A stretch of DNA of 55,344 bases from an uncultured virus (IMG/VR IMGVR_UViG_3300007523_000006) (IMGVR_UViG_3300007523_000006:62001-117344), one strand, 5' to 3'. Positions 17,783 through 38,684 are shown, numbered from the stretch's first letter. Notes: generated by a model from the letters alone, not told the origin. Program-made: numbers and translations.

Positions 17783-17863
17783 GTGAACACTTTATCCCTC
17801 AGTCTATCGCTCTCTTATTCCTTGCTATCATTTAGCAACGGAGAAGGCTGCGTCCTGACTTAA
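17783..17863 (+). CDS. Attenuator leader peptide MNTLSLSLSLSYSLLSFSNGEGCVLT
   Basis: GGAG SD 6 nt before GTG. Codons 4-18 are all Leu/Ser/Tyr/Phe and use varied synonymous codons. Confidence 0.8.
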   Translation: MNTLSLSLSLSYSLLSFSNGEGCVLT

Positions 17864-17936
17864 AGGGACAATTGTGGGGAAGAATAAACCCCCGGCAGCT
17901 TTCTCCAGAAATGGAAAAGCTGCCGGGGGTTTTTTT
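17840..17936 (+). terminator. Attenuator: antiterminator strand plus intrinsic terminator
   Basis: Terminator AAACCCCCGGCAGCTTT../..AAAGCTGCCGGGGGTTTTTTT at 17886-17936. GGAGAAGGCTGC (17840-51) can pair with GCAGCTTTCTCC (17895-906) in the terminator 5' arm. Confidence 0.85.
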
Positions 17937-17941
17937 AGTTT

Positions 17942-18031
17942 GGGAGTAAGGCGACTGCTGGTTGTGTCGCACCTGCCTGTAAAGCAGGGCCTACAAGGTA
18001 AACATCGCAGGTTCAATTCCTGCTGCTCCCA
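17942..18031 (+). tRNA. tRNA-Tyr(GTA), long variable arm, no encoded CCA
   Basis: Acceptor GGGAGTA/TGCTCCC, anticodon arm CCTGC-CTGTAAA-GCAGG, T arm GCAGG-TTCAATT-CCTGC. Confidence 0.85.
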
Positions 18032-18103
18032 CTGTGTACGTCAGATTTATTGTTGCGTCCTCACTCTTGTAGTGCGGAGGCAACTAATGAAAGAATAACA
18101 AAC

Positions 18104-18175
18104 GGATCGGTAGCTGAGATGGAGTATCGCTGGCCTGAAAAGCCGGAGACGAGGATTCGAGCGACTCCCGATCCA
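18104..18175 (+). tRNA. tRNA-Phe(GAA)-like with degenerate T arm (possible pseudo-tRNA)
   Basis: Acceptor GGATCGG/CCGATCC and anticodon arm CTGGC-CTGAAAA-GCCGG. T stem GAGGA/GACTC is imperfect. Confidence 0.6.
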
Positions 18176-18187
18176 CTGAAAGGAACA

Positions 18188-18748
18188 ATGATGGAACCGA
18201 TTTATTTGCCATCTGCTGGCAACGATATGAGCAGAGTGGTTAACTCTATTTTCGATGAAACGAAGGGTCTTGAATGGCTGACCGAGAGGTCTGCCCGGAA
18301 AGAATACTTCATGTCCACGAAAGACAGAGAGTATAGCTACGGGAACAGACATCAAGGCGACGTAATGTACAGAAGCAAGCCATTCAGTTTTTTAGTGGGA
18401 CAGTTTATGGAGTACATAAACGAAACACAGAAATCTGAATTCAATGTTTGTTTTCTGAACCGCTACGAAAACGAACAACAGCACCTTGGATGGCACGCTG
18501 ATGATTTTCCGGGAATGAGAGCCGATCAGTCAATCGCCGTGTTGTCGTTGGGAGCAGAACGGGAAATATGGTGGAAGGAAAAATCCTTCAAAGGAATTAT
18601 TCCACCAGAAAATAAACAACTGTTGGAACACGGCAGCATATGGATTATGCCTGTTGGATTTCAAGATGTTTATCTTCACAAAATTCCAAAACATGGAAAG
18701 CCTTGTGGAGAAAGGATCAGTTTGACATTCAGAAGTTTTGTTGATTGA
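18188..18748 (+). CDS. alkB: AlkB-family 2OG-Fe(II) dioxygenase
   Basis: LNRY, LGWHADD (HxD), SLGAER, HKIPK and RISLTFR. Start follows an AAGGA SD downstream of the Phe-like tRNA. Confidence 0.88.
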   Translation: MMEPIYLPSAGNDMSRVVNSIFDETKGLEWLTERSARKEYFMSTKDREYSYGNRHQGDVMYRSKPFSFLVGQFMEYINETQKSEFNVCFLNRYENEQQHLGWHADDFPGMRADQSIAVLSLGAEREIWWKEKSFKGIIPPENKQLLEHGSIWIMPVGFQDVYLHKIPKHGKPCGERISLTFRSFVD

Positions 18749-18845
18749 CGGTAGAAGTCTGTATGTTGTCCACCGGCTTGCCGAGTTCAACGGGACTCTG
18801 AGCTAATGACTCAGACGAAAGATTGATGCTCCGATCAACAAAAAT

Positions 18846-18920
18846 GGCACGGTGATGCAATTTGGCAGACATCTCACGCTTAGAACGTGGGTTCTGTGGG
18901 TTCGAGTCCCACCCGTGTCA
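18846..18920 (+). tRNA. tRNA-Leu(TAG) with short variable loop
   Basis: Acceptor GGCACGG/CCGTGTC, A73, TCACG-CTTAGAA-CGTGG, 5-nt variable loop, GTGGG-TTCGAGT-CCCAC. Confidence 0.85.
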
Positions 18921-18936
18921 CTTTCCTGGAAAACAA

Positions 18937-19022
18937 GGGTTCTGTTCCTCATGCCTGACTGTAAATCAGGTGACAAAAAATTTTGAGGCGGCTGTCGAGG
19001 GGTTCAACTCCCTCAGAACCCA
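18937..19022 (+). tRNA. tRNA-Tyr(GTA)-like RNA lacking a D arm, with enlarged variable region
   Basis: Acceptor GGGTTCT/AGAACCC. Only 10 nt precede CCTGA-CTGTAAA-TCAGG. T loop TTCAACT. Confidence 0.6.
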
Positions 19023-19061
19023 CTTCGGCTTTACAGCCGAATTTGATGGTGATAGAATCAT

Positions 19062-19138
19062 GCCCAGGTGATGCAACCTTCGGTAGACATCCGATACTCA
19101 AAATATCGGTTTTACGGGTTCGAGTCCCGTCCTGGGTA
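19062..19138 (+). tRNA. tRNA-Leu(CAA) with short variable loop
   Basis: Acceptor GCCCAGG/CCTGGGT, CGATA-CTCAAAA-TATCG, 5-nt variable loop, ACGGG-TTCGAGT-CCCGT. Confidence 0.85.
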
Positions 19139-19154
19139 CTTTGCGGAGAATGTG

Positions 19155-19685
19155 ATGGAAGAGAAATGCACGGAGTTGACTCTCGAACAATGTGAATTTG
19201 CTTGCAAGATGGTTTGCCAGTGGATGAATATTTGCGAGGACAATAAGCGTGGATCAAGTTCGGCTGATGTCGATCATTCTGCCCTTTTGCGAAGGATGTT
19301 GATGGGTGGGACGGTTCATAAAAATCCTCCACCAAAAAGATTCAGTTATCCTTGTTGGGGATTGGTTGAACAAGAAGAGATCGAAATCCAAGACATGCAC
19401 GAATATGACATAGACATTGAAGGCATGAAAGGAACTGTGGTTGTCGATCAACATCGTGAATACGAATGGGTGGATAAAGAAAATAAAATCATCAAACACA
19501 CACGATTGGGCATTGAGTATCAATATTCCGAACGTGAAGTAACACCAGATGCCAGACGTTTACGAAAGGGTTTGAACCCCGAAGACCATAAATACACTGG
19601 TAAATTTTTGAAGAGATTGAATGATCCACCAACAGGAAAAGAAGAAGTGTGGAAAATGCAAGTGAGTGGCTTTTGTTCAGGATGA
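19155..19685 (+). CDS. Hypothetical protein
   Basis: GGAG SD after the tRNA. The ORF-track 5' extension overlaps the tRNA and was trimmed. Confidence 0.65.
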   Translation: MEEKCTELTLEQCEFACKMVCQWMNICEDNKRGSSSADVDHSALLRRMLMGGTVHKNPPPKRFSYPCWGLVEQEEIEIQDMHEYDIDIEGMKGTVVVDQHREYEWVDKENKIIKHTRLGIEYQYSEREVTPDARRLRKGLNPEDHKYTGKFLKRLNDPPTGKEEVWKMQVSGFCSG

Positions 19686-19839
19686 ACATCAGGCTGACCC
19701 CGGTAGCGTAACTCGCCAATGATCGGTAAGTAACATCATCAAGGAAGATGAAACCACTAAGGAATAAAATGATGAAAAATAATCACGAAAGTTTGGGTAG
19801 CGTCTTTTAAGTGCATTCCGCACTTAGGAGAATCGCTAC

Positions 19840-20292
19840 ATGGCAAAAAAAAGATGGTTCTCGGCATTCCTTCGGTATCCGAGAACAACACAAGAACTAA
19901 GAGCAAACCAAGACCGCAATGATCCCTATGTCCGTGGAAAGAGACGAAACCTTCCCACGGCATGGGACGATCGGTTTGTTCGCAAGCAAAAATCATGGAA
20001 ATATCTCGGTCGAGATCATCAATACCGAGAACAAGGTCATGGTTACGAGTGGCATGAATTCCAATACTCGTGGCGTGATACTGAACGGAGAATGATCGCC
20101 AGAACCATCATGGACTGGCTGGAACGACTTGGATGCTTCTACGAAACGATTCGTGGCGGCTTCCGTTGGTTTGGACCAGCATGGTGGATCAAAGGTCATT
20201 GTCGCTGTTGTTATACACAATTGATTTCTGACACCCAATCCGAAGAGTTCGGAGATTGGTGTCCAAACCCGGACTGTTGCTTCCTTAACTAA
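19840..20292 (+). CDS. Hypothetical basic protein with C-terminal Cys cluster
   Basis: AGGAG SD. R.PRTTQE...RGKRRNLPTAWDD...KSWK motif. Confidence 0.65.
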   Translation: MAKKRWFSAFLRYPRTTQELRANQDRNDPYVRGKRRNLPTAWDDRFVRKQKSWKYLGRDHQYREQGHGYEWHEFQYSWRDTERRMIARTIMDWLERLGCFYETIRGGFRWFGPAWWIKGHCRCCYTQLISDTQSEEFGDWCPNPDCCFLN

Positions 20293-20369
20293 GAGAAAAA
20301 CCATGAACAAATTCACTCAAATCCTTGGACTCATCAAACCTATTACCCAAACCCATTATGGAGGGAACG

Positions 20370-20669
20370 ATGAGAAGGTGGAACGAGGATTACAAGATCA
20401 CTCTGCGTGAGTGGAAAAAGCACCGTCGCTCTCATGTTGAGAGTAACAAAAGCTGGATAAATCGCATCGGAGTCAGCGCCTATGTCGTTGATTGTGAGCG
20501 TGATGAACAAAAAGGTCGATTCCGTAAGAAAGACGCTTTCGATTGTGGCAATACGCAGTGCAGAATTTGTCACAGCGACAAGTATCCCAAGCGGGAAAAA
20601 CACGAACACGAATTGAAGTCCGATGTGGACTTCAAAGAACAACTCAAAGAGTTGCGTGGTGAAGAGTAA
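20370..20669 (+). CDS. Hypothetical basic protein with CGNTQCRICH zinc motif
   Basis: GGAGGG SD and open reading frame. Confidence 0.6.
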   Translation: MRRWNEDYKITLREWKKHRRSHVESNKSWINRIGVSAYVVDCERDEQKGRFRKKDAFDCGNTQCRICHSDKYPKREKHEHELKSDVDFKEQLKELRGEE

Positions 20670-20703
20670 AAGAAGACGAAGGTTTGAAAAAGCCTTCGTT
20701 TGA

Positions 20704-20780
20704 GTCCAAGTAGGCAAACCTCCGGCAAAGCCGCCAGATCGAGAGTCTGGTGTTTGTGGGTTCGACTCCCACCTTGGACA
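20704..20780 (+). tRNA. tRNA-Leu(GAG) with short variable loop and C at position 33
   Basis: Acceptor GTCCAAG/CTTGGAC, CCAGA-TCGAGAG-TCTGG, GTGGG-TTCGACT-CCCAC. Confidence 0.8.
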
Positions 20781-20857
20781 TTTTCTAAATCCTGTTCAAC
20801 AATCAACGAGAATTGGGAGTGTCAGACAATGCAGTTAGAAAACGGCAGTTAGAAAAC

Positions 20858-20931
20858 GGCTCAGTAGGCAATCGGCAGACCACCCAGGCTTAAACCCAGG
20901 GATGCTGTGAGTTCAAATCTCACCTGAGCCA
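20858..20931 (+). tRNA. tRNA-Leu(TAA) with short variable loop
   Basis: Acceptor GGCTCAG/CTGAGCC, CCAGG-CTTAAAC-CCAGG with one A-A mismatch, GTGAG-TTCAAAT-CTCAC. Confidence 0.8.
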
Positions 20932-20946
20932 CTTGATTTTTAATAC

Positions 20947-21028
20947 GGCTTTGTGGTGAAATTGGCAAACGCACAGCACTCAAAATGCTGCGTCGAAAGA
21001 CTTGTGGGTTCGAGTCCCACCAAAGCCA
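20947..21028 (+). tRNA. tRNA-Leu(CAA), canonical long variable arm
   Basis: Acceptor GGCTTTG/CAAAGCC, CAGCA-CTCAAAA-TGCTG, variable arm GTC-GAAA-GAC. Confidence 0.92.
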
Positions 21029-21146
21029 CTGTTTCGATTTCTGGATCTGGCTCTTACTCGTTGTGAGTAGAAACACCTTTTTTTGGTGGGGTTATAGAAG
21101 TCAAACCTCCAACGGTGATCTCGTAAAGATCACAGGAGAAAGTAAA

Positions 21147-22319
21147 GTGAAGAAAGTCCACATCAATGTCGGAACGATTGGTCACATTGACCACGGGAAG
21201 ACGACTCTGACAGCAGCAATTCTCGCTGTTCAGTCCGAGAAGGGTTACGCAAAAAAGAAAGCATACGGCGACATCGCCAAGGGCGGCACCGTTCGTGACG
21301 TTACCAAAACGGTAACGATCACCACGTCGCACGTTGAGTATGAGACGGATACCCGTCACTATGCTCACATTGACTGCCCCGGTCACGCCGACTATGTAAA
21401 AAATATGATTACCGGGGCTGCTCAAATGGACGGCGCTGTATTGCTCGTCAATGCAGCAGACGGTCCTATGCCTCAGACGAAAGAGCATATTCTGCTCGCT
21501 CGTCAGGTGGGCGTGCCGGATATTGTAGTATTCCTCAATAAGTGCGATCTTGTCAAAGACGAAGAATTGCTGGAACTGGTCGAGATGGAAACAAGAGACT
21601 TGCTGACGAAGTATGGCTTCGACGGCGAGAAGACTCCGTTTATCCGTGGAGCAGCAAAACCTGCCTTGGATAATCCTGCTGATCCCGCAGCAAGCAAGTG
21701 TATTGTAGAATTGTTGGCGGCTCTGGATTCTTATATTCCTGACCCCAGCCGTTCTATCGACCGTCCCTTCTTGATGCCCGTCGAAGGTGTTCACAATATC
21801 GAAGGTCGTGGCTGCGTAGTCACGGGCAAGATCGAGCAAGGAACCATCACGGTCGGAACCAAAGTTGAAATCCTTGGGTTGACTGATATTCTGGAGTCAG
21901 TTGTCACCAGCGTCGAGGCTTTCAATAAGCAACTGGAATATGGAGAAGCTGGACAGAATGTCGGTTTGCTGCTGAGAGGCATCAAGGCCGATCAAGTTCA
22001 GCGTGGACAGGTTGTGGCACAACCACGAAGCATCAAGCCTCACACCAAGTTCAAGAGCGAAATTTACGTCTTGGGCAAGGATGAGGGCGGGCGTCACACC
22101 CCGATCTTCAATGGTTACAAGCCACAGTTCTTCCTCAGAACTACCAACGTCACCGGCCTTGTCCAAATGCCGGAAGGAATTGAGTTGGTCATGCCGGGCG
22201 AGAACACTTGCCTGTTTATCACCCTGGATAAGCCGATTGCTATCGAAAAAGGTAGTCACTTCGCCATTCGTGAGGGTGGTATGACAGTCGGTTCTGGCGT
22301 CGTGACGGAATTGCTGTAA
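21147..22319 (+). CDS. tuf: Elongation factor Tu, Planctomycetota-type
   Basis: [34 protein letters not shown] and EGGRHTP. GTG start after AGGAG. Effector loop [17 protein letters not shown]. Confidence 0.97.
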
Positions 22320-22336
22320 AACGGCTGTAAAACGGC

Positions 22337-22384
22337 TGTAAAGCAAAGCGAAAGCGTGGTATAATCAAATACCACGCTTTCGCT
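22337..22384 (+). promoter_or_regulatory. 16-bp perfect inverted repeat after tuf, overlapping a sigma70-like promoter
   Basis: AGCGAAAGCGTGGTAT-N6-ATACCACGCTTTCGCT at 22347-84. TGTAAA-17-TATAAT at 22337-65. Preceded by an 11-bp tandem repeat. Confidence 0.6.
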
Positions 22385-22427
22385 GCAACGGTTAAGAAAT
22401 TTCCATTGGCACGCACCAGGCATAAAC

Positions 22428-22709
22428 ATGCGTCGAGAAACAACCATCATCGGCATGATAACAATCATTTTCATGATTGTCGTTTTCTTCATTTCAAGTG
22501 CCACTAATTCCAGCGATCAAGCCAAAATACAAAAATGGGCTAGTGACAACAAATATGTCATAGTCACATCTGAACGGTGTTTTTTCTACTCCGGCCCTTA
22601 TTGGACGACTAAAAACACTCGGATTTACAAAGTCGATTTGGAAAATAACAAAACCCATTGGTTCCGATTCGGACTTTGGGGAACCGACACCGACATCGAG
22701 GAATATTGA
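22428..22709 (+). CDS. Small membrane-anchored protein
   Basis: N-terminal hydrophobic helix. Confidence 0.6.
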   Translation: MRRETTIIGMITIIFMIVVFFISSATNSSDQAKIQKWASDNKYVIVTSERCFFYSGPYWTTKNTRIYKVDLENNKTHWFRFGLWGTDTDIEEY

Positions 22710-23080
22710 TGCGAAGACAAAGACCCACCGCTTGTGAAATCCGAAAACAAATGAACACTGCCGATAGCACCCACCAAAGGTGTGTGTCGGATTATTCATT
22801 TGGTAAATTCAAAATGAAACCGGGAGAAGTAATTCTTACTTGGCACGACAAAGAAAACGACAAGCACAATAGAATGGTATTGACCCACCGTTCAACTGGC
22901 GTCCAAATATTTGGATATATCAAGCCAGGATACAACCCATCCAAAAAAGAGATCAGCGAAATGCGAAAGCATTTTATCAAAAAGAATTTGTCTTTACTTG
23001 AAAGCATGACGAGGCGACACCTTAGAGCGTGCATGGCAAGTCAGTATGGACCCATTCCAAAAGGACAGTTCGATGAGTAG
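22709..23080 (+). CDS. Hypothetical protein
   Basis: TGATG stop/start overlap with the previous gene and a GAGGA SD. Confidence 0.55.
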   Translation: MRRQRPTACEIRKQMNTADSTHQRCVSDYSFGKFKMKPGEVILTWHDKENDKHNRMVLTHRSTGVQIFGYIKPGYNPSKKEISEMRKHFIKKNLSLLESMTRRHLRACMASQYGPIPKGQFDE

Positions 23081-23306
23081 AAATCAAATCAAACGATGTG
23101 CCTGTGGGCTACCGCTTCATTATCGAGACAAAACCAAAGAAGCGGAAGTTCAAGGAGAGATCGACAAGCTCGGAGAATGGATACCATTCAGCATTGGTCA
23201 AAGTCGATATTTGGTGCAAAGACACTACAAAGAACTGCACGGCCTTAATCCAAATGAAGTTCCTGCTTTAATGAAGCAAGGAATTATCAGAATAAACAAG
23301 GATTAA
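23073..23306 (+). CDS. Hypothetical protein
   Basis: AAGGA SD and a CACG motif. Confidence 0.55.
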   Translation: MSRNQIKRCACGLPLHYRDKTKEAEVQGEIDKLGEWIPFSIGQSRYLVQRHYKELHGLNPNEVPALMKQGIIRINKD

Positions 23307-23496
23307 AGTCGATATGAACACCTACTCCAACGAACTCATGCAAAAACTGACAAATCAGTTTTAGGCGACATTTTACAATTGGTGCCAAACATTTGGAAGT
23401 TGCTAGTTTTTCGACCTTTTCATGAATTGGCAATAGCATCAATCACAGACAATGTTGCATCATCAGATATTGTCGCTAGAGCTTTGGGCAATTTTT

Positions 23497-23808
23497 TTAG
23501 CTCCCAAGATTTTCTTTGTTGGTTGGCAATAATTCAGACGCCCAATTATACATTTCAGATAATAAATCTCCAAATTGTTTGGCTCGACTTTGATTACAAA
23601 AATGTAAAGGATAATTGCTATGAGGAAAATGCCAATTAGAACAACCATCCCACTTAATGTGTCCAATTAACAATGGATCTTCATCAGAAACTTCTTGATT
23701 TCCTTGGTAAATAAAAAAATTAACAATATGTCCATTTTTATGCAAGTCAGCCAACACCACATAAGGATCTTCTGATCCTTGAAAGAACTCTCTTAATGTA
23801 TTCGACAT
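23497..23808 (-). CDS. Hypothetical protein
   Basis: 103-aa ORF with IKWDGCSNW...HFC motif. Confidence 0.55.
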   Translation of the reverse strand: MSNTLREFFQGSEDPYVVLADLHKNGHIVNFFIYQGNQEVSDEDPLLIGHIKWDGCSNWHFPHSNYPLHFCNQSRAKQFGDLLSEMYNWASELLPTNKENLGS

Positions 23809-23846
23809 TTCATTGTCTTTCTAAATTTATTTTATTGTCTAATGGC

Positions 23847-24071
23847 TCATACAACAATTCTTACGTTTCCGGGTGGCTTTCTAGGAGCCATCTCTCCCTG
23901 TCCCAAAATCATTACAGAGTGTCCAACTTGTGTTAGGTGAAACTCTAAAGTCACATCCTCAACCATCCAAAGTCCCATGCCAGTTCCATTACAGTGTGGA
24001 CAAGGTCCATCAACCAAACCACTGCAATTACAATTTCCACAAGATTTCTTTACGAAAAAATCCATATCCAT
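23847..24071 (-). CDS. Small DnaJ zinc-finger/C-terminal-like protein or fragment
   Basis: CGNCNCSG, CPHCNGTG and GQGE...PPGNVRIVV. Confidence 0.45.
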   Translation of the reverse strand: MDMDFFVKKSCGNCNCSGLVDGPCPHCNGTGMGLWMVEDVTLEFHLTQVGHSVMILGQGEMAPRKPPGNVRIVV

Positions 24072-24128
24072 CTCCGCCACAAGTGTAACAAAAATCACAT
24101 GGCACAAAATCGCTCAGTGGAAGAAAGA

Positions 24129-24380
24129 ATGAACATTTTGGCTCTTATCCCAATTGGTGGGATTGCCGGTATGCCGCCATATACGCCACATGCAGGATCA
24201 GGAAAAATCGCCTGTGCTGGCTGTGGTATAGCTTGTTGGATCGGTCCTCGTCAAACCGTGATGAAGCTCGAAAAGCCTGAACTCCCGGCATTGTGCATGT
24301 TGTGTGCGTGCAAAGAAATACAAAAACAAAAAGAATCAGACGAAGAAGTAACTGCATCCGTGATTCCATTAGGTGATTGA
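24129..24380 (+). CDS. Small zinc-binding hypothetical protein
   Basis: CAGCG...CW...LCMLC motifs. Confidence 0.55.
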   Translation: MNILALIPIGGIAGMPPYTPHAGSGKIACAGCGIACWIGPRQTVMKLEKPELPALCMLCACKEIQKQKESDEEVTASVIPLGD

Positions 24381-25033
24381 ATATGCAAAGAGATTATAGT
24401 TGGAAGCCATCCTGGAGTCCTATTCACAAAGAATGTGACGTTCACCCTCATGTCCCTGCGGAACGTGCTGATTTATTTGAGGTCGCCGATGGCGGCTCTA
24501 CTGAATATGAAGTCTTAAATTGGCTTCATTCCACAATCCGAGTATTGAAGCCACAACTGGTTCTTGAAACTGGTGCGTGGGAGGGTTTCGGAACAACCGC
24601 CCTAGCTCATGCTTGCAAACTCAATGGATTCGGCAAGGTGCATTCTCTTGAAGTTCTGCCGCCACAATGCGTGCGACTTCAGACGGTTCTTGAAGAAGAA
24701 CACTTGCTTAAATGGGTTGAAGTGCATTGCGTAGATTCGCTTGAATTCTTGCAACAATCTAATATTATCTTCGATATTGGATTCTTTGATAGCCTGACCG
24801 AGATCAGGCCCATCGAATGCGAGATAATGCTCAACAAAGGCACGTTGAGAAACCTTGCTGTCTTCCACGACACATCGCCTCATCGGTCTGAATCCGCTCC
24901 TGATTGGACCAGCACAGAAACTCAAAACACATACAGAGAAAAGGTCTTGGCCTTAGCCAAACATCCCCGATGTACTGGCTACTATGATTCCCCACTATCC
25001 AGAGGATTCATGGCCTTGTTCTTAAAAGGCTAA
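24377..25033 (+). CDS. Class I SAM-dependent methyltransferase (Methyltransf_24-like)
   Basis: [25 protein letters not shown] and VFHD. Confidence 0.8.
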
Positions 25034-25034
25034 C

Positions 25035-25372
25035 ATGAAAAACGTAGTTGTAATGTTCCCATATCCATCGGGTGCCGGTTTACACTTGGGGCATTACTAT
25101 AATTATGCCATTATCGACAGCTATTGTCGATTTCTGCGATATGAGGGCGAAGAAGTCTTTCAGCCTTTTGGATATGACGCATTCGGACTGCCTGCCGAGA
25201 TCAAGGCTTGAAGAATTCAGTACGAAATTATTTGTTCTTTTGGAAAGTGAACAAGGTGGTCAGCACATTCATGACCTTCTATAACGACAACAAAGACAAA
25301 AAAGTCTCGCCCGCCAACGCCAAAGAGATTGTCCAGTTGCTTCAAAATTTTGCACCTGGATTTAATCTTTGA
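25035..25372 (+). pseudogene. leuS: Leucyl-tRNA synthetase remnant with internal deletion and frameshift
   Basis: 25035-25211 encodes [14 protein letters not shown]...[10 protein letters not shown]. Another frame, about 25202-25372, encodes WKVNKVVSTFMTFYN...IVQLLQNFAP, resembling the anticodon-binding-domain helices. Confidence 0.85.
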
Positions 25373-26088: not shown

Positions 26089-26091
26089 GAC

Positions 26092-26316: not shown

Positions 26317-26319
26317 GGT

Positions 26320-26739: not shown

Positions 26740-26822
26740 ACTTGATTTTATCTTTCGTGATTGTATACTCATAACTTGTGTTGAGAACCAACCAAGGCCC
26801 CAAAGGAGAGTTTACAGTGAGT

Positions 26823-27286: not shown

Positions 27287-27482
27287 AGCATTGGCTACAG
27301 TAAATCGGGTGATTTAGGGAAAGGTACGTCCTTTCCTTTGGGGAAACAAAGACAGCCAGGATGTTGGCCTAGAAGTAGCCAACATTCAAAGAGTAGGGTT
27401 ACACAGGGACTTCCTGTTAACGGACCCTTTTGGTGTAATAACACACTGGCCGAGCCACCCAACACTCGACACTGGCAATGCT
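27287..27482 (+). ncRNA. Stand-alone RNA mimicking the 23S rRNA GTPase-associated centre (H42-H44)
   Basis: AGACAGCCAGGATGTTGGCCTAGAAGTAGCCAACATTCAAAGAGT [38-nt insert] GTGTAATAACACACTGGCCGAG. Closed by AGCATTG/CAATGCT and followed by a terminator. Confidence 0.85.
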
Positions 27483-27492: not shown

Positions 27493-27535
27493 GAGCATGT
27501 CGCCGACGAAGGCTTAGGCGACATGCTCATTTTTT
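27493..27535 (+). terminator. Intrinsic terminator
   Basis: GAGCATGTCGCC-N12-GGCGACATGCTC-ATTTTTT. Confidence 0.85.
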
Positions 27536-27736: not shown

Positions 27737-27818
27737 GGCCCTGTGGTGGAATTGGAATACACATGGGACTTAAAATCCCACGCCGAAAGGATTGCGGGTT
27801 CGAGTCCCGCCAGGGCTA
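27737..27818 (+). tRNA. tRNA-Leu(TAA), canonical long variable arm
   Basis: Acceptor GGCCCTG/CAGGGCT, TGGGA-CTTAAAA-TCCCA, GCGGG-TTCGAGT-CCCGC. Confidence 0.92.
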
Positions 27819-27851
27819 CGTTTTACAAGATGCCTAAAACGTGGTAAAACT

Positions 27852-27932
27852 GGCCGAGTGGTGGAATGGCATACACGATGGTTTTAGGAACCATTGCCGC
27901 AAGGCTTGCAGGTTCAAGTCCTGTCTCGGTCA
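27852..27932 (+). tRNA. tRNA-Leu(TAG), canonical long variable arm
   Basis: Acceptor GGCCGAG/CTCGGTC, ATGGT-TTTAGGA-ACCAT, variable arm GCC-GCAA-GGC. Confidence 0.92.
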
Positions 27933-28551: not shown

Positions 28552-29436
28552 ATGAAAGTTTTTTACAACGAAAATCAGTCAGTGGAAAATAATCCAAGCA
28601 TTTCGCCAAGTGCCAAGAAGCCCACGGCAGTATTGAAGTCGTGGCAGGAAATTGTGCCTGTCGAGATCATGCCAGTTGTTCCTGTAACCGTTGCAGACTT
28701 GGAGTTGGTGCATGACAGAGAATACGTTAATGATGTTATCTCTTGTCGCATAGAAAATGGGTTCGGCAACAAACTGAAAACCATTGCTGATTCTTTGCTG
28801 TGGACAAATGGTAGTTTTCTTAGTGCTGCTAAATACGCAGTTGAAAACAAAACAAATACAGTTAGCCCAACAAGTGGTTTTCACCATGCAGGATATTATG
28901 CTGGTAGTGGATTTTGTACATTTAATGGACTTATGTTGGCGGCAATAACGCTCAAAAATGCCATGCTGGTCAATCGAGTTGCCATTGCTGATTTAGATAT
29001 GCACTATGGCAATGGCACGGATTGCATCCTTGAGCAGTTATCCATTCGAGGAATGAAAGATTTCATCTCTCATTATACTTTTGGCGGGCATTTAGACACT
29101 GTTGATCGTGGAGCTAAAAGTCGGCTTGCTTTTGGCCAAGCATACACAAAACTTTTGCCCGACATTATCACTAGGTTGCTTGATGATGCAGATGTTCTGT
29201 TCTATCAGGCTGGGGCTGACCCTCATGTGAATGATCCATATGGCGGCGTTCTCACGACTGAAGAGTTAAAAGAAAGAGATCGCATTGTTTTTACAATTGC
29301 GAAAGAAAGAGGAGTGCCGGTTGTTTGGAATTTAGCAGGCGGGTATCAAACCGACTTTTCTAAAGTCTTGGAAATCCACAACAACACAGCTTTGTTGCAC
29401 GTTGAGATATTCGAGAATGCACCGGAAACCTTGTGA
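28552..29436 (+). CDS. Zinc-dependent histone-deacetylase-family amidohydrolase
   Basis: GFHHA, GFCTFN, DLDMHYGNGT, QAGADPH..D and AGGY. Confidence 0.9.
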   Translation: MKVFYNENQSVENNPSISPSAKKPTAVLKSWQEIVPVEIMPVVPVTVADLELVHDREYVNDVISCRIENGFGNKLKTIADSLLWTNGSFLSAAKYAVENKTNTVSPTSGFHHAGYYAGSGFCTFNGLMLAAITLKNAMLVNRVAIADLDMHYGNGTDCILEQLSIRGMKDFISHYTFGGHLDTVDRGAKSRLAFGQAYTKLLPDIITRLLDDADVLFYQAGADPHVNDPYGGVLTTEELKERDRIVFTIAKERGVPVVWNLAGGYQTDFSKVLEIHNNTALLHVEIFENAPETL

Positions 29437-31148: not shown

Positions 31149-31149
31149 C

Positions 31150-32513: not shown

Positions 32514-32517
32514 GATC

Positions 32518-33771
32518 ATGGCTGCAAACAAAAAGATTCACATCATCGGTGGTGGAACGGTCGCACAAATTGGCCCGCACTTGGCTTTGTGCGCCCCAGC
32601 TTATGGTGGCACTGCAAAGAGACTACATCACTTGTGCTGGCAGCAGTGCCACACTCTGGACTCTGAACTCCATCTCACCAAGATGGCTGGCGGAAATGAA
32701 CTGGAAACCAATGCTGATATTGCAAAATTGGTGAACGAAATCGTTGCCGATCCAGCATCAAAGATCGTGTTTTTGAATGCTGCTCTGGTTGATTTTCAAT
32801 ACGATGGTGTTGCCGACAAATACGGCGAGCGAATTAAATCTCGTGAAACTCCACACCTTCAGTTGAACTTTGTTCCAGCGGATAAAGTCGTTGGCAATAT
32901 CCGCAAGAATCGTAAGGATATTTTTGCCGTCGCATTCAAAACGACTTCAGGAGCAACGCCAGAAGAACAATACATCGCTGGCTTAAATCTCCTGAAAGAG
33001 TCCAGCCTGAATTTGGTTTTTGCCAACGATGTGAAAACTCGATTGAACATGGTCATTACGCCTGAAGAGGCTCGTTATCACGAAACCACAGATCGTGATG
33101 AAGCCCTGGAAGGCTTGGTCGAAATGACTTTGCTTCGATCTCATTTGACCTTCACTAGATCAACCGTCGTAGACGGTCAACCTGTGCCTTGGGACTCGGA
33201 ATTGGTGCCTGAAGCACTCCGCACGGTTGTCGATCACTGCATCAGTGCTGGTGCCTACAAGCCATTCCGAGGGGCGACTGTGGGGCATTTTGCTTGTAAG
33301 GTAAACGACACAACTTTCCTTACAAGTATTCGCAAGTCGAACTTCAACGATCTACCCAATACTGGTCTGGTTCGTATTGTGACTGATGGGCCAGACAGCG
33401 TGATCGCTTATGGTGCCAAACCGAGTGTCGGTGGGCAAAGTCAACGTATTGTGTTCCACGATCATCAGGAATACGACTGCATTGTTCACTTCCATTGCCC
33501 GATTAAACCGGGATCAGAAGTACCAGAAGTCTCACAGCGGGAATACGAGTGTGGGTCGCATCAATGTGGAGAGAACACCAGCAAAGGACTGAAGCAGTTC
33601 GGAAACTTGAGCGCCGTTTATCTTCAAGAGCATGGACCCAATATTGTTTTCAATCGCTCGATCAATCCGCAAGAAGTGATCGACTTCATTGATGCCAACT
33701 TCGATCTGAGCGATAAGACTGGCGGTTATGTGAGCTTGGGGCAAATCCTCACGACTCCTCACGACTCCTGA
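32518..33771 (+). CDS. Fusion of a CoaB-like (DFP) domain with a class II aldolase-like domain
   Basis: N-terminal IIGGGT, NAALVDF, AFKTT and LVFANDV. C-terminal G.FA, KPS, IVHFHCP, CGS and L.EHG. Confidence 0.6.
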   Translation: MAANKKIHIIGGGTVAQIGPHLALCAPAYGGTAKRLHHLCWQQCHTLDSELHLTKMAGGNELETNADIAKLVNEIVADPASKIVFLNAALVDFQYDGVADKYGERIKSRETPHLQLNFVPADKVVGNIRKNRKDIFAVAFKTTSGATPEEQYIAGLNLLKESSLNLVFANDVKTRLNMVITPEEARYHETTDRDEALEGLVEMTLLRSHLTFTRSTVVDGQPVPWDSELVPEALRTVVDHCISAGAYKPFRGATVGHFACKVNDTTFLTSIRKSNFNDLPNTGLVRIVTDGPDSVIAYGAKPSVGGQSQRIVFHDHQEYDCIVHFHCPIKPGSEVPEVSQREYECGSHQCGENTSKGLKQFGNLSAVYLQEHGPNIVFNRSINPQEVIDFIDANFDLSDKTGGYVSLGQILTTPHDS

Positions 33772-33807
33772 CACTGTGGATTTTCTACGCTTTTCCTATG
33801 AGGGGCA

Positions 33808-34560
33808 ATGATGAAGAAGGTTGTGCTTTTTGCTTGTTTGTTAATGATTGGATGTAGCAAATCCACCGAAACAGTTGCCGAGGCACAAGTGTCGGTACAG
33901 ACAGAGCCGACAATGCTTCAAAGGTTTTTTGGAGGCCCCACCAAAGAAGAGATTGCCACACAGCAAGAACTATTGGCTCAACAGCAAGAGTTGCACGCTC
34001 AACAACTCAAGGCCAAACAAGAGTTGCAGGCTCAACAGCTTAAAGACGGAGACGCATTGGTTGCTAAGTGGGCTGATAAGATTCAAGAAACAGCAACTAA
34101 AGACAGCTTCGGATATGAGCGAATGGAAGGTTTGACGGAAGCTGATCCCTGGGGTCAGCAAATTAAGGTGAACTATCGCCAAGAATGGTTCAAAGAAATT
34201 GCAACTATTCAATCTGCTGGACCTGATGGTGTTTTTGGAAATACCGATGACTTGATTAGAACAAGATCAGCCAAGAATCCCGCTGGAATCATTGAGGGAA
34301 TTTCTTCATTAGGTTGGGTTGTATTGGCTTGGTTGTTTTGTGGTGGATTGGCATTGGCATTCTCGTCGGGAATTGGTCATCGCCGAGTCACTAAAGGCAA
34401 ATCAAAAAATCATCGTCGTCCACTTGTGTTCGGCGTGACAACTGTATTATTTGCTCCTGTGGCGGTGTTGATTTACGGATTGCAATTCATTGGCGGGGCT
34501 TTGGGTGCAAACGGTGAATTCTTCGATGGATTTGACTTCGACTTCGACATTGACCTATGA
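33808..34560 (+). CDS. Lipoprotein/membrane protein with GspG-like C-terminal motif
   Basis: Lipobox MIGC, DPWGQ...QSAGPDGVFGNTDD and two transmembrane helices. Confidence 0.6.
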   Translation: MMKKVVLFACLLMIGCSKSTETVAEAQVSVQTEPTMLQRFFGGPTKEEIATQQELLAQQQELHAQQLKAKQELQAQQLKDGDALVAKWADKIQETATKDSFGYERMEGLTEADPWGQQIKVNYRQEWFKEIATIQSAGPDGVFGNTDDLIRTRSAKNPAGIIEGISSLGWVVLAWLFCGGLALAFSSGIGHRRVTKGKSKNHRRPLVFGVTTVLFAPVAVLIYGLQFIGGALGANGEFFDGFDFDFDIDL

Positions 34561-34726
34561 GGATGAATATGAGCAACTGTCCACAAGAAGAACGTTACCA
34601 GGATATTTTACAAAAGAATACCTCCACGATGAACTTGCTCAATAACATTGAGCGGTCACAAAGGCGACGAAGATTCAACGCCTGGGTCAAACGATGGTGG
34701 TATAAACTAACCTTCCGAGGTTAAAA

Positions 34727-35269
34727 ATGAGCGAAAAAAAGTCAACAAGGGATGATTTTCGTAATGCCGTATTCAAACGGGATGGCTATGCCTGCGCTAT
34801 GTGCGGGCATAAACCAGAAAACGTCAATGAATTAGACGCCCACCACATTACAGATAGAACCTACATGCCATTCGGTGGATATTGTGCCGCCAATGGCATT
34901 TCGCTTTGTACAGATCGCTGCAAGAAGGAATCTTGGCTGGGTTCTTCGCTCGATTGTCACCAGAAGGCAGAACACCTTCACGCTACCGGAATTGAATTTC
35001 CGGGATATGCTCCAGTGAACCTTTATGCTAGAATCAAGTCTTCCTATAAACAGGCTTATTCGCACAGTCTCAAGCTAGAGATCACAGCCAATAGAGCCGA
35101 CGCAATGATGGCCGTCATTGACGTAATCTCCAAAAAAGAATTGGAGGTATGTCTTCGCTTGTGTGAAAACACCAGCCCGGAGACATGGGAGTTAACTTGT
35201 GACGAACTAAGTGAGTGGGAACCCCTCAATAGAACTTACGGAAAAGGTCGCTATGTCCCTGACAAATGA
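34727..35269 (+). CDS. HNH endonuclease
   Basis: VFKRDGYACAMCG...LDAHHI...NGISLC...CH. Confidence 0.8.
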   Translation: MSEKKSTRDDFRNAVFKRDGYACAMCGHKPENVNELDAHHITDRTYMPFGGYCAANGISLCTDRCKKESWLGSSLDCHQKAEHLHATGIEFPGYAPVNLYARIKSSYKQAYSHSLKLEITANRADAMMAVIDVISKKELEVCLRLCENTSPETWELTCDELSEWEPLNRTYGKGRYVPDK

Positions 35270-36344
35270 ACAGAAAGATGTCCTGAAGCTCTTAGTGGGC
35301 AATATGGACAACCACCAGCAGCAAACTCTTGGTGGATATGCGGGGACAGGAAAATCAACAATTATTCGAGTGATGCTCGACGCCCTTCAACGAAAAGGGC
35401 GATATTTTTGCGCAGCCGCATTTACCGGCAAAGCCACGAACGTATTGCGCAAAAAGGGAATGAATGCCAATACGATTCACAGCACGATATACCAGCCGTA
35501 CAAAGACGAGCATGGCGAAACCGTGTGGTTCTTGGCTGACAAAACTGACTTAGTGTCCAAGGGCATTGACGGCTTCATTATTGATGAAGCGTCTATGGTG
35601 AGCAAGGAAATACACGACGATCTTATGTCGTTTGGCCTGCCAATTATCTATGTTGGCGATCACGGTCAACTTGAGCCTATTGGCACCAAATTCAACCTTA
35701 TGCAAAAGCCAATGTATAAGCTGGAGACGGTTCATCGAAATGCTGGTGAGATTGCATATTTTGCCGAGCATCTTCGCAAGGGCAATTCTGCCAATTCCTT
35801 CATGGGAGCAACGAAGGTTCAGATTGTTCAAGAAAAAGCAATTGAGGATCGACACCTTGCTGCCGTCGATCAAATCATCTGCGCCTTCAATAAGACTCGT
35901 GTGCAACTCAACGAGCGTGTGCGTATCGAGAAAAAGATTCAATATACATTCATTGCCAAAGGCGAGAAGGTCATTTGTTTAAGGAACAATAAGAAGCAGG
36001 GTTTGTTTAATGGGATGCAAGGCGTTGTCCAGAAAATCCACAAGAACGACCGCTTTGACTTTATATCGGATGGCAACTTCTTCGAGAAGGTCCATTACGA
36101 TCCTGACCAGTTTGGAAAAGACTCAAATAAGTTTGAGTTTTCCCAGGCAGCAAATCCATTCGATTACGCATACGCCATCACTTGCCATAAGGCTCAAGGC
36201 GACGAATGGGGCAATGTGATCGTATACGAACAGCGATGCGATAAATGGGATAACGTGCGATGGTCTTATACAGCAGCCAGTCGTGCAAAAAACGGACTGA
36301 TCTGGATCGCTGTAGAAGAGTTCCGACCCAACTATCTAGGGTAA
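35253..36344 (+). CDS. SF1B helicase (Dda/RecD-like)
   Basis: GYAGTGKS, AFTGKA, TIHS, IDEASMV, GDHGQL, YAITCHKAQG and YTAASRA. Confidence 0.9.
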   Translation: MSLTNEQKDVLKLLVGNMDNHQQQTLGGYAGTGKSTIIRVMLDALQRKGRYFCAAAFTGKATNVLRKKGMNANTIHSTIYQPYKDEHGETVWFLADKTDLVSKGIDGFIIDEASMVSKEIHDDLMSFGLPIIYVGDHGQLEPIGTKFNLMQKPMYKLETVHRNAGEIAYFAEHLRKGNSANSFMGATKVQIVQEKAIEDRHLAAVDQIICAFNKTRVQLNERVRIEKKIQYTFIAKGEKVICLRNNKKQGLFNGMQGVVQKIHKNDRFDFISDGNFFEKVHYDPDQFGKDSNKFEFSQAANPFDYAYAITCHKAQGDEWGNVIVYEQRCDKWDNVRWSYTAASRAKNGLIWIAVEEFRPNYLG

Positions 36345-36444
36345 TGTTAAAAGAACCAATCAGTAAATGTGCATCGCATTGGGCTGTGGGCGTACTCGAC
36401 ACCAATCGTGCCGAATATTTCAAAGCCAAGAATTTGGAGATTAG

Positions 36445-36473
36445 TTTACAGATCGCCGAAATCGTGGTATCAT
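36445..36473 (+). promoter_or_regulatory. Sigma70-like promoter upstream of the RNase P RNA
   Basis: TTTACA-17 bp (...CGTGG)-TATCAT. Confidence 0.6.
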
Positions 36474-36507
36474 CTATCGCAAAAATCAAGCTCCACGAGT
36501 ATGATAT

Positions 36508-36792
36508 AAGGGGATGCAACTTGTCGAGTCGTCGCTGTAATCCCCTCAAGGGGTTGTAGAGGAAGTTCTGGACACTACTGCTTTTAAGGTAGGAGCGAAA
36601 ACCTCGAAAGGGGCTAATAGTGTTTGAACTACCGAGGGTGCAAGCCATACAGACCAAAATCTCGTAAGAGGTACGCCGGTGAGCAGGGCGTCATCATGGT
36701 CGGGTCGGTGCAGTCCGCAAGGACCGGGGGCAACTCCGAGATAAATGACGACATAGAACAGAATCCAGGCTATGGATAAGTTGCATCTCCTT
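36508..36792 (+). ncRNA. rnpB: RNase P RNA, compact
   Basis: P1 GGGGATGCAACTTGTC/GATAAGTTGCATCTCC and P2 GTCGTCG/TGACGAC. CR-I GAGGAAGTTCTGGAC, CR-V AGAACAGAATCCAGGCTA and GCAAG before P15. Confidence 0.88.
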
Positions 36793-36814
36793 TTCAAGTC
36801 AAAAAGGAGATGTC

Positions 36815-37606
36815 ATGCGTGCCGAAATTGTCCACGTTACGGACCACGCTTTGTTGCGATGGAAAGAACGTGCGTCGAAAACAGGTGAAGTCAACGTAGA
36901 AGAAATCGTTCAGGCTGTAAAAGAATCCAAGGTCATCAAAAAAAACGAACCTTTGCCTTACCCGATGCCTCGTTTAGATGGATCAGTTTACAGCTTCAAT
37001 GCCGGAGTGTTGTTCATTCTCGAATCAGTAACCATTGATGAATATCGACTCGTCACAGTTATCGCCGACGAGCCGACCTATCAACGGATTGCTCGACCGC
37101 CGAAGAAACAACTTAATCCTCGAAAGAGACAGAAATACGAGGAAGTTCAAAAGGTGCAAATCGACATTCCTTGCTTTGAAAGTTTCATCGAAGAACGTCA
37201 ATGGTTGACCGACGAGAAACGAAAACTCGAAAGTGAACTGGCAACAACAGCGAAGAAATCTTCCACTCGCAAAGAAATATTGAAGGTGTGGGGCGAGATT
37301 GAAGCCCGACTCACCGAGAACAAACCTCAATATCTCGAAGAGCGGAAAAAATCAGGAGACGGATATGTTGACTATGGTTCTCTTCTTTTGCAAATTATCA
37401 GAGAGTTAAAAGAAATACGCTCTGAACAACAGGAATTACGTAACCTAATCGAAGGCTCCAATGGACAACAACCGAGATCACCGAGCAATCGGAAAAAAGC
37501 TAGACCTCTTCATGTTCAGCCCTCTATCGCCGGGTTGTCCGATCTGGCTCCCGAAGGGAGTTGTGCTTTATCAGTCTTTGCTGAACCGCATTCGTCAACT
37601 CAATGA
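36815..37606 (+). CDS. Hypothetical protein (N-terminal VTDHALLRW motif plus coiled coil)
   Basis: AAGGAG SD. The 3' end overlaps thrS by about 146 nt. Confidence 0.6.
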   Translation: MRAEIVHVTDHALLRWKERASKTGEVNVEEIVQAVKESKVIKKNEPLPYPMPRLDGSVYSFNAGVLFILESVTIDEYRLVTVIADEPTYQRIARPPKKQLNPRKRQKYEEVQKVQIDIPCFESFIEERQWLTDEKRKLESELATTAKKSSTRKEILKVWGEIEARLTENKPQYLEERKKSGDGYVDYGSLLLQIIRELKEIRSEQQELRNLIEGSNGQQPRSPSNRKKARPLHVQPSIAGLSDLAPEGSCALSVFAEPHSSTQ

Positions 37607-38684
37607 AGCCAATGGTTGCCAAGAAGTTCGGACCCCACTTATATGGAAGTCCGAACTTTATGCAACCAGCGGACACCTGGATCACTATGCAAAAAATATG
37701 TTCTTCGTCAGTGATAAGCCTGCTGGCGAGTCCCACGAAGAAGGACATGAAGATCAGTGCTTAAAACCAATGAATTGTCCTGGGCATATGGAGATATTCC
37801 GCTCGAAACAGTGGAGCTATCGAGACTTGCCTGTTCGATTCGCTGAATATGGTCCTTTACACCGCAATGAAGTTTCTGGTGCCTTGGGTGGGCTAACTCG
37901 CTGTCGTGCATTCTGCCAGGATGACGCCCACATTTTCGTTTCGCCGGACAACCTACAAAGCGAAATCAAACGAATCCTTGTCATGATCGAAAGAGTTTAC
38001 GGATGGTTTGGAATGAAGTTCCGATCCGTACTCAGCACTCGTCCTTATAACTTCATGGGCGAGAAGTTGGTTTGGGATAATGCTGAGGCGAACCTCGAAG
38101 ATGCTTTATGCGAAAATGGATTGAAGTTCGAGATTGCCCATAAAGACGGTGCGTTTTATGGTCCAAAAATAGACTTCATTGTGACTGATTCCCTTGGACG
38201 TGATTGGCAAACAGCAACAATCCAATTGGACTTCCAGTTGCCTCAAAGATTCGGTTGTACCTATACCGACAAGGACGACAAAGAGCAAACTCCAATTGTC
38301 ATTCACAGAGCAATATACGGCAGCTTTGAAAGATTCATTGGTGTATTGTTGGAACATACTGACGGGCATCTACCATTATGGTTGGCTCCTGTTGGTGTAA
38401 CCATTGCACCAATCAGCGACAAAGTTGCTGAATACGCTGATGAGATCAAAGAGGTTTTGCTTGCTCATGGAATTCGGTGTGAATGCGATCACTCGAATCG
38501 AACTCTGCAACAGAAGATTGCCATCGGGTACGATAAAAAAGTACCCTACATGGTCATCTTGGGAGAGAAAGAAAAATCCGCAAGAACCGTTACCCTCAAA
38601 CAAATGAGATCAACTGCTGTCGCACAGGAAACCTTATCTTTGGAAGTATTCCTTCCTCAGATGGTCGCACTGGCGAAAGAGTAA
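37461..38684 (+). CDS. thrS: Threonyl-tRNA synthetase lacking N-terminal TGS/editing domains
   Basis: DHRAIGK, SGHLDHY, KPMNCPGH, HRNE.SG.L.GLTR, QDDAH, GAFYGPKID, TIQLDF and IHRAIYGSFERF. Length is 407 aa. Confidence 0.95.
   Translation: MDNNRDHRAIGKKLDLFMFSPLSPGCPIWLPKGVVLYQSLLNRIRQLNEANGCQEVRTPLIWKSELYATSGHLDHYAKNMFFVSDKPAGESHEEGHEDQCLKPMNCPGHMEIFRSKQWSYRDLPVRFAEYGPLHRNEVSGALGGLTRCRAFCQDDAHIFVSPDNLQSEIKRILVMIERVYGWFGMKFRSVLSTRPYNFMGEKLVWDNAEANLEDALCENGLKFEIAHKDGAFYGPKIDFIVTDSLGRDWQTATIQLDFQLPQRFGCTYTDKDDKEQTPIVIHRAIYGSFERFIGVLLEHTDGHLPLWLAPVGVTIAPISDKVAEYADEIKEVLLAHGIRCECDHSNRTLQQKIAIGYDKKVPYMVILGEKEKSARTVTLKQMRSTAVAQETLSLEVFLPQMVALAKE

Follow-up and report, generated by a model that had tools for sequence, protein, structure and literature searches.

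A tRNA gene block of giant phages putatively gated by a codon-matched leader

Introduction

Why phages carry tRNA genes has been argued over for decades, with compensation for codon usage set against replacement of destroyed host tRNAs. Here we describe a tRNA gene array and its leader in a 55,344-nucleotide stretch of an uncultured virus genome (IMG/VR IMGVR_UViG_3300007523_000006, positions 62001-117344), hereafter called the window. A short open reading frame (ORF) rich in codons for leucine, serine, tyrosine and phenylalanine is followed by an intrinsic terminator stem and then by the tRNA genes, and similar units are found in related phages. The phage probably makes the tRNAs of this block when ribosomes stall for lack of them. 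Because the leader is written in the array's own codons, it would serve as a readout of tRNA shortage in infection, and the question of why such tRNAs are carried becomes testable with a small reporter.

Structurally, the unit resembles the attenuators of ilvGMEDA, thrL and pheM-pheST in E. coli, which likewise include a promoter, a codon-rich leader and a terminator about 20 nucleotides (nt) past the leader stop codon, along with a competing fold of the kind predicted here. It differs from them in being encoded by a phage, in putatively controlling tRNA genes rather than biosynthetic enzymes or synthetases, and in sampling 11 anticodon classes of four amino acids. The closest functional precedent is described in PMC8421152, which together with PMC10272220 concerns the trn operon of Anabaena and related L-arrays, where a spare tRNA array is induced under impaired translation. 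In Anabaena, a protein repressor (TrcR) acts on one mixed array and attenuation is unmentioned in the accessible text of PMC8421152, whereas the phage array appears to carry a codon-matched attenuator for four amino acids.

Some phage tRNAs counter host defences, including T5 tRNA-Tyr against retron-Eco7 and tRNA-Lys against PrrC (accessible portions of PMC11555353 and PMC10264068). The array described here could similarly replace depleted host tRNAs. However, the anti-defence tRNAs in those portions rely on a strong promoter or on anticodon-loop changes, with no feedback sensor described, whereas the present block has a putative leader sensor and no known host nuclease. PMC7162821 reports huge phages that encode tRNAs by the dozen along with synthetases, elongation factors and CCA-adding enzymes; its main text leaves EF-Tu and RNase P unmentioned, and its accessible passages describe no partition into gated blocks. 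Phage tRNAs and synthetases are treated in the accessible parts of PMC7162821 and PMC7824862, where AlkB is described as sporadic; EF-Tu or RNase P may be listed in their supplements. The combination of a sensor leader with an effector tRNA array is absent from the searchable literature. Searches on attenuator control of phage tRNA genes returned nothing relevant, and the same was true of searches on three features described below (short-arm tRNA-Leu, a 23S rRNA mimic and phage RNase P RNA), with most subscription papers lying outside their reach.

Results and discussion

A conserved leader, terminator and tRNA array

The leader ORF of the window (Table 1) holds a run of 15 Leu/Ser/Tyr/Phe codons, compared to a background frequency of 0.219, and covers every one of the 11 anticodon classes that serve these amino acids. 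The 5′ arm of the adjacent terminator has an alternative predicted partner in the 3′ end of the leader, and the resulting antiterminator duplex, of −19.0 kcal/mol, is equalled by 2 of 300 shuffled sequences. When a ribosome is masked on the sensor codons, 13 of the 17 terminator-arm nucleotides are occupied, versus 6 of 17 when the ribosome is placed at the stop codon. A promoter-like site is located about 50 nt 5′ of the leader, and a similar one was seen by eye for 11 of the 12 leaders collected in this study.

These leaders come from two sets of loci, in which handles such as G003 or L106 denote individual records. A search with EF-Tu, which is encoded within the window, yielded 38 viral loci, 20 of which were scanned for tRNAs. 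Twelve loci have EF-Tu identity of at least 66%, and 11 of these carry Leu/Ser/Tyr/Phe tRNA arrays; the twelfth (L006) carries another array. In all 10 of the Leu/Ser/Tyr/Phe loci scanned, there is a homologous leader with a strong hairpin and a U run after it; this arrangement is absent from the eight other EF-Tu loci scanned. The second set is anchored on the flanking sbcD gene and so avoids selection on EF-Tu. Its 13 loci include three from the window's clade, two new leader-plus-array units (L106 and L115), and eight without tRNA genes, six of which have recD adjoining sbcD.

The arrays downstream of these 12 leaders gave 140 tRNA calls, of which 139 are for Leu, Ser, Tyr or Phe. Within the block of G003, a 533-kb record rated complete, 13 of 14 tRNAs are for these amino acids, compared to 1 of 42 elsewhere (Fisher p 1e-10). 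G006 has an array for the 16 remaining amino acids, without any of these four. A grouping by i6A37 (UNN codons) would account for Phe but not for 61 of 158 leader codons (CUN/AGY), nor for Cys and Trp, which are placed in the other array of G006.

The distance from leader stop codon to terminator stem is 18-27 nt in 10 of 10 leaders. In the alignment of the terminator stem, 99.3% of cells are paired and two-sided changes occur in 12 of 14 pairs, with none of 500 shuffles as good. More nucleotides of the terminator arm are occupied with the ribosome on the sensor codons than at the stop codon in eight of 10 leaders. In addition, the leaders spread their codons over isoacceptors. Summed over 10 leaders, with the near copies L003 and L004 excluded, 75 Leu/Ser classes are represented, compared to 64 and 66 under two null models (p 1e-4 and 1.6e-3). 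This checklist-like design fits the sensing of tRNA species better than the sensing of amino acids.

In the mechanism we propose, a ribosome would pause on the leader when any charged Leu, Ser, Tyr or Phe tRNA species runs short, which would permit the antiterminator to form and the tRNA array to be transcribed. Such a shortage could arise from host tRNA nucleases, from a general decay of host RNA in infected cells, or from starvation. The block would be one part of a tRNA set that is partitioned by amino acid, in which other blocks can have matched leaders of their own, and it would thus act as a homeostat of supply and not as a device specific for Leu. We give a probability of roughly 0.7 to this reading, in which the actual unit is a tRNA block gated by demand, carried by a planctomycete-type giant phage and induced by ribosome stalling on a codon-matched leader.

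Leaders on other blocks and the origin of the leucine bias

No leaders were detected on other arrays under strict settings, and looser ones gave two in G002 (C1 165335-165520 and 184850-185065), each being a leader-terminator unit located before another tRNA block. The leader before an Asn/Lys/Ile/His/Gln/Arg/Cys block matches it in 16 of 27 codons (p 0.002), and that before a Met/Pro/Gly/Asp/Thr/Glu/Val/Ala block does so in 27 of 35 (p 2e-4). The putative gating principle can therefore extend over the whole tRNA set. The Leu/Ser/Tyr/Phe block itself is preceded by such a predicted gate in all 12 cases.

In relatives whose EF-Tu is 96% identical, four Ser tRNAs, a Leu(CAG) and a further Phe gene lie between the terminator and the Phe gene that corresponds to the Phe-like gene of the window. 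This stretch of 1.4-2.1 kb is missing from the window, where an AlkB gene is inserted just 3′ of the gap, and the window's Leu bias is thus attributable to recent loss of the Ser block. We read the mismatch in the window between sensed Ser codons and missing Ser genes in the same way. The block in this lineage is evidently eroded, with its Ser genes lost and a leucyl-tRNA synthetase (LeuRS) gene broken. The 56 tRNA calls of G003 include 7 for Leu, 6 for Pro, 6 for Arg and 4 for Ser, indicating that Leu is in no special excess.

An original prediction, made from this sequence alone, had interpreted the roughly 21-kb span 17783-38684 as an integrated Leu-centred translation-rescue toolkit, possibly a sensor-plus-effector counter-defence against attack on class II tRNAs. 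The comparisons above do not bear out the Leu-centred part, because the conserved set is Leu/Ser/Tyr/Phe and the complete relative shows no whole-genome Leu surplus, an outcome that the prediction itself had named as refuting. Restriction to class II tRNAs fares no better, given that Phe is always included, that many Leu tRNAs are without the long arm (see below), and that the G002 leaders lie on other blocks, which argues that control is not class-II-specific. The sensor-plus-effector design does survive, as a leader and tRNA array conserved in 12 distinct phage records rather than as a 21-kb toolkit. It was also noted that Leu codons are not dominant enough to call for seven tRNA genes (Leu makes up 8.1% of codons in the 117-kb virus record G000, of which the window forms the 3′ end), and, correctly, that CCA is encoded by none of the tRNA genes (10 of 10). 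CCA-adding-type genes are found in three of five relatives, and none was found in G000.

The two Tyr-type tRNAs of that account include one regular gene, at 17942, and one element (18937-19022) that is degenerate. The latter scores 24.3 bits in the identical record G008, which is below the Rfam cut-off, and similar elements are present in L007, L034 and L003. The Phe-like gene at 18104 is 82-84% identical to a Phe gene of three close relatives. Ribozymes were sought in the spacers 18749-18845 and 19690-19800, where there is no Rfam match and the folds are no better than those of shuffled sequences.

Short-arm tRNA-Leu genes

The long variable arm is described in the accessible part of PMC9976931 as a feature of tRNA-Leu in all organisms except animal mitochondria, and as not required by E. 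coli LeuRS. In four of the window's seven tRNA-Leu genes, the variable region is about 5-6 nt long, and these genes do not have class II shape. The long arm is present in the remaining three and in tRNA-Tyr at 17942, and is also missing from the Phe-like gene. The seven tRNA-Leu genes of the original prediction are all present, but the long arm of class II tRNAs is found in three of seven only. Nine relatives gave 67 tRNA-Leu calls, of which 26 are short-arm and 41 long-arm, with both kinds present in eight of the nine.

Using the leucine identity set of E. coli (A73, A15-U48, G18G19 and A20a; PMC9976931), we found A73 in 23, A15 in 23, U48 in 26 and the D-loop GGNA in 25 of the 26 short-arm genes of relatives. 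The short-arm genes thus retain this identity set and are putative Leu acceptors, and leucine identity elements are kept in the four of the window as well. Such arm-less tRNA-Leu of bacterial type contradict the general long-arm rule as it is given in the accessible part of PMC9976931. Their presence could be a sign of an unknown host nuclease, or they could find use as orthogonal tRNAs.

EF-Tu and the source of the sequence

A metagenome contig of 462,616 bp (L087) matches the window at 99.7-100% in every in-frame gene compared, indicating that G000 represents roughly one quarter of a giant phage. Of the 120 best matches to EF-Tu, five carry organism names, and all of these are from Planctomycetota (74-77% identity). 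From this one gene, a planctomycete host is suggested. The EF-Tu tree is a quick version and was not used to name a donor, and plasmid and phage records contain no EF-Tu above 62% identity among the full-length matches listed.

EF-Tu usually sits within the Leu/Ser/Tyr/Phe array. Part-by-part co-occurrence was counted in one set of 22 records, which are mostly fragments and include G008, the record identical to the window's phage. EF-Tu is found in 13 of the 22, all retrieved via EF-Tu, and in neither of the arrays found via sbcD. The protein of the window has three domains and H84. Compared to the E. coli protein it carries D216G, F218H, M260A and R262N, at positions near the aminoacyl pocket. 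The residues G216/H218/A260/N262 are a subfamily trait, common to L006 and to cellular proteins (Gemmataceae, Aquisphaera), and this subfamily with its changed pocket may differ in aminoacyl-tRNA preference. At the presumed Lit site (G59-I60), T59-V60 is present in the window EF-Tu, in named planctomycete proteins and in nearly all of 119 aligned database matches. The presumed Doc site, T382, is kept, and the RGITI motif is missing from the window protein and from 102 of 102 other close matches. Relative to cellular planctomycete proteins, there is no phage-specific change at the Lit or Doc toxin sites.

The region 5′ of EF-Tu (21040-21146) is structured, with motifs common to eight of nine aligned phages, including L006 with its different array, and a tRNA gene lies 80-140 nt upstream in nine of nine phages. 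It is a possible autoregulatory leader of EF-Tu. In L034, EF-Tu is spread over three frames (9947-11155), reflecting either a frameshifted gene or sequencing error.

A free-standing mimic of the 23S GTPase-associated centre

The window contains a phage-encoded copy of helices H43-H44 of 23S rRNA (match at 27341-27460, E 3e-8). Both helices are conserved in eight phage mimics, in which the distance from H43 to G1091 is 51-130 nt versus 13 in a true 23S gene. In the 23S centre (H42-H44), the helices are joined by the base triples 1071/1091/1100 and 1072/1092/1099 (accessible parts of PMC2952862 and PMC8614978). The mimics resemble the centre in their H43/H44 sequences and in both triples. The first triple is G/G/C in eight of eight mimics; the second is U/U/A in the window and C/C/G in the seven others. 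Because all three bases have changed together, the comparison points to selection on the tertiary fold of the mimic, such that its three-dimensional fold would be maintained outside a ribosome.

The mimic is found in six of the 22 records (six of the 12 distinct array-bearing ones). All of these also have the array and EF-Tu, whereas the nine records without a visible array yielded no mimic. A pattern search recovered six viral contigs, all with the array, and six metagenome contigs, two of which are too short to judge. In bacterial genomes, the sole match to this pattern is inside a true 23S gene. A candidate role for the RNA is that of a decoy for uL11 or for a ribosome-targeting factor. Another candidate, that the mimic is the leader of a phage uL11 gene, was rejected because PF00298 is found in none of the five carriers searched. 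A bL12-like gene is present in one of five records searched (G003 C1 186003-186209), far from the mimic.

RNase P RNA, passenger genes and transcription units

A compact RNase P RNA is found in eight of the 22 records (seven distinct phages; seven of 12 array-bearing), each of which contains the array as well as EF-Tu; no copy was found in the nine records without a visible array. The phage RNAs are 238-294 nt long and score 41-67 bits, all below the gathering score of 100 for class A (RF00010). This lowers the case for RF00010 membership but not the likeness of the catalytic half, whose motifs are conserved in seven aligned copies, and these phage-encoded RNAs are putative ribozymes for cleavage of pre-tRNA 5′ leaders. 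The RNase P RNA and the 23S mimic are best regarded as recurrent array neighbours with separate promoter-like sites. Their co-occurrence with the array could be due to shared ancestry.

Other parts of the span are sporadic. The AlkB family is found in one of 22 records and is absent at the site in L003, L004 and L090; the deacetylase is likewise in one of 22. ThrRS, which covers profile positions 170-558 and is missing the first 169, is in three of 22 records and is gone from its site in the 96% relative L091. The LeuRS remnant is followed by a second short ORF (25205-25372) and is absent from L003, L004 and L090. LeuRS is over the cut-off in none of 15 records, with weak matches in G002, G003 and G005. 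All four were rejected as members of a conserved unit because of this sporadic occurrence, and AlkB, the deacetylase and ThrRS are, by their distribution, passengers of the variable region between sbcD and recD. In L003, a small nucleotidyltransferase-like ORF (17027-17632) takes the place of the deacetylase, with weak HalB/MntA matches below the cut-off.

The 21-kb span also includes about 20 ORFs unrelated to translation, among them a methyltransferase, a glycosyltransferase, a GSP synthase and a RecD-like helicase. A single operon over this span was rejected on the basis of pattern matches to promoters at 19030, 22337, 26742, 30388 and 36445 and the hairpin at 27493. A TTTACA-17-TANNNT pattern with an extended −10 recurs at 17363, 19030, 30388 and 36445; variants of it lie at 22337 and 39939. 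The internal promoter-like sites and the hairpin after the mimic suggest several transcription units, and direct control by the attenuator therefore cannot extend to the deacetylase, RNase P RNA or ThrRS. Every part listed in the original prediction (attenuator, tRNAs, AlkB, EF-Tu, LeuRS remnant, 23S mimic, deacetylase, RNase P RNA and ThrRS) is present where it was placed. The expected co-occurrence in relatives holds for EF-Tu, the mimic and RNase P RNA, which lie near the array in many, and fails for AlkB, the deacetylase and ThrRS. Integration of the whole into one toolkit is contradicted by these low counts and by the promoter-like sites and terminator that split the span.

Alternative explanations

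Several observations weigh against a stall-induced switch. The structure used for covariation was taken from the window's own hairpin, so that the test favours it, and the leaders are related by descent, making the p values optimistic. Among the 10 leaders modelled, L008 and L011 show no switch, and the antiterminator duplex is clearly better than shuffles in three of 10 only (p<0.05). Sigma-70-like sites are not enriched over shuffles (23 vs 18.2; 11 vs 15.8), and in the window's clade the promoter-like site at 19030 could drive EF-Tu and most Leu genes independently of the attenuator. The window leader retains seven Ser codons in a 117-kb record without Ser tRNA. Even the looser scan detected no matched leader at the 16-amino-acid arrays of G003 or G006, the G003 search being limited by a record that starts 145 nt before its array. 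The weak or absent antiterminators, the Ser mismatch and the internal promoter-like sites are also consistent with a leaky terminator or processing signal that acts at a fixed level, or with a generic response to translation slowdown, the codon match being historical. We consider this highly improbable, since the match is kept over 12 divergent leaders and shifts with array content in L106 (one Leu codon in the leader and zero Leu tRNA in the array), and since G002 has independent matched leaders. Alternatively, the leader might read host limitation for the four amino acids, with extra tRNA as a nutritional response. The architecture is that of the trp, his, leu and ilv attenuators, and uncharged tRNA would likewise stall ribosomes. 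However, extra tRNA would presumably not relieve a lack of amino acid, the leader codons are spread over isoacceptors instead of being concentrated on a single one, and none of 119 array-region proteins scanned is a biosynthetic enzyme for Leu, Ser, Tyr or Phe, which makes starvation sensing a highly improbable function.

A third explanation, close to that first put forward for this locus, is one integrated counter-defence against enzymes that attack class II tRNAs and EF-Tu, in which AlkB, the deacetylase, RNase P RNA, ThrRS and the 23S mimic would act together. Phage tRNAs do rescue infection from retron-Eco7 and PrrC (accessible part of PMC11555353). Moreover, in bacteria the long-arm tRNAs are those for Leu, Ser and Tyr, the leader samples isoacceptors, the mimic and RNase P RNA keep to array-bearing records, and the short-arm genes that accompany long-arm tRNA-Leu in most relatives are the best hint of evasion. 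No matching host enzyme is known. Phe is not class II and G002 putatively gates other blocks likewise; AlkB, the deacetylase and ThrRS are sporadic; EF-Tu is missing from both sbcD-found arrays and in G006 lies within the complementary 16-amino-acid array; and at the toxin sites EF-Tu retains T382 and lacks RGITI just as its relatives do. In addition, two bacterial Schlafens are not class-II-specific in the accessible parts of their reports: the Cash nuclease is broad, compared to human SLFN11 with its preference for type II tRNAs (PMC13462974), and cleavage in PMC13056530 is mainly of tRNA-Lys. We regard an integrated counter-defence as unlikely. By analogy with SLFN11, one may also imagine an antiviral tRNase of planctomycete hosts that recognizes the long arm, the loss of its targets being sensed through the isoacceptor checklist and answered with arm-less tRNA-Leu, while the changed-pocket EF-Tu and a uL11-site decoy would sustain translation and blunt the stringent response. 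This scenario is tentative and, in our view, rather doubtful.

Feature coordinates and additional observations

Table 1. Features of the window around the leader and tRNA block, numbered from its first nucleotide.
Feature	Position	Strand	Basis or remark
Promoter-like site of leader, TTGAAA-17-TACTAT	17706..17734	+	pattern match
Leader ORF, 26 codons	17783..17863	+	homologous leaders in 11 other records
Intrinsic terminator, 17-bp hairpin and U run	17883..17939	+	starts 22 nt after leader stop
tRNA-Tyr(GUA), long arm	17942..18032	+	
tRNA-Phe(GAA)-like, irregular T arm	18104..18175	+	Rfam 36.5 bits
AlkB-family 2OG-Fe(II) oxygenase, lineage-specific insertion	18188..18748	+	PF13532
tRNA-Leu(UAG), short variable region	18846..18920	+	
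Degenerate tRNA-Tyr-like element, GUA loop, without normal D arm	18937..19022	+	
Internal promoter-like site TTTACA-17-TAGAAT, 3′ of attenuator	19030..19058	+	conserved in L003, L004, L090
tRNA-Leu(CAA), short variable region	19062..19138	+	Rfam 40.1 bits
tRNA-Leu(GAG), short variable region, C33	20704..20780	+	Rfam 51.2 bits
tRNA-Leu(UAA), short variable region	20858..20931	+	
tRNA-Leu(CAA), long arm	20947..21028	+	
EF-Tu, planctomycete-type subfamily	21147..22319	+	TIGR00485 601.7 bits, cut-off 522.4
Promoter-like site after EF-Tu, overlaps 16-bp inverted repeat	22337..22365	+	conserved in L003, L004
LeuRS remnant, 58-aa N-terminal piece	25035..25211	+	TIGR00396 71.5 bits, cut-off 548.4
Promoter-like site 5′ of ORF preceding 23S mimic	26742..26769	+	9/12 consensus matches, weak alone
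Free-standing copy of 23S GTPase-associated centre (H43-H44), inserted hairpin	27341..27465	+	
Terminator-like hairpin and U run after mimic	27493..27535	+	−24 kcal/mol, z −5.8, 0/200 shuffles
tRNA-Leu(UAA) at 27737 and tRNA-Leu(UAG) at 27852, both long arm	27737..27932	+	
Histone-deacetylase-family protein, lineage-specific passenger	28552..29436	+	PF00850
Promoter-like site before RNase P RNA	36445..36473	+	pattern match
Compact RNase P RNA, class A-like	36516..36788	+	53.7 bits, E 1e-13
ThrRS, without N-terminal (editing) part	37461..38684	+	TIGR00418 463.5 bits, cut-off 383.65

Additional protein-coding genes are found within the arrays. Two small proteins at 19840-20292 and 20364-20669 of the window recur in five and six of 11 array regions, respectively, and in an atlas search their ORFs matched unnamed viral clusters only. 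ClpS, which recognizes N-terminal Leu, Phe, Tyr and Trp, is encoded within the Leu/Ser/Tyr/Phe array of L007 (7447-7845) and of L034 (7888-8217). The array of L007 also contains a single-chain PheRS, with a catalytic and an FDX-ACB domain, and a CysRS (17675-20105). Just 5′ of the leader promoter in the window, a 38-nt unit is repeated four times (17520-17671) and is present as a single copy in L003 and L004. Farther downstream, positions 47787-54691 carry a cluster of two collagen-repeat proteins and three glycosyltransferases.

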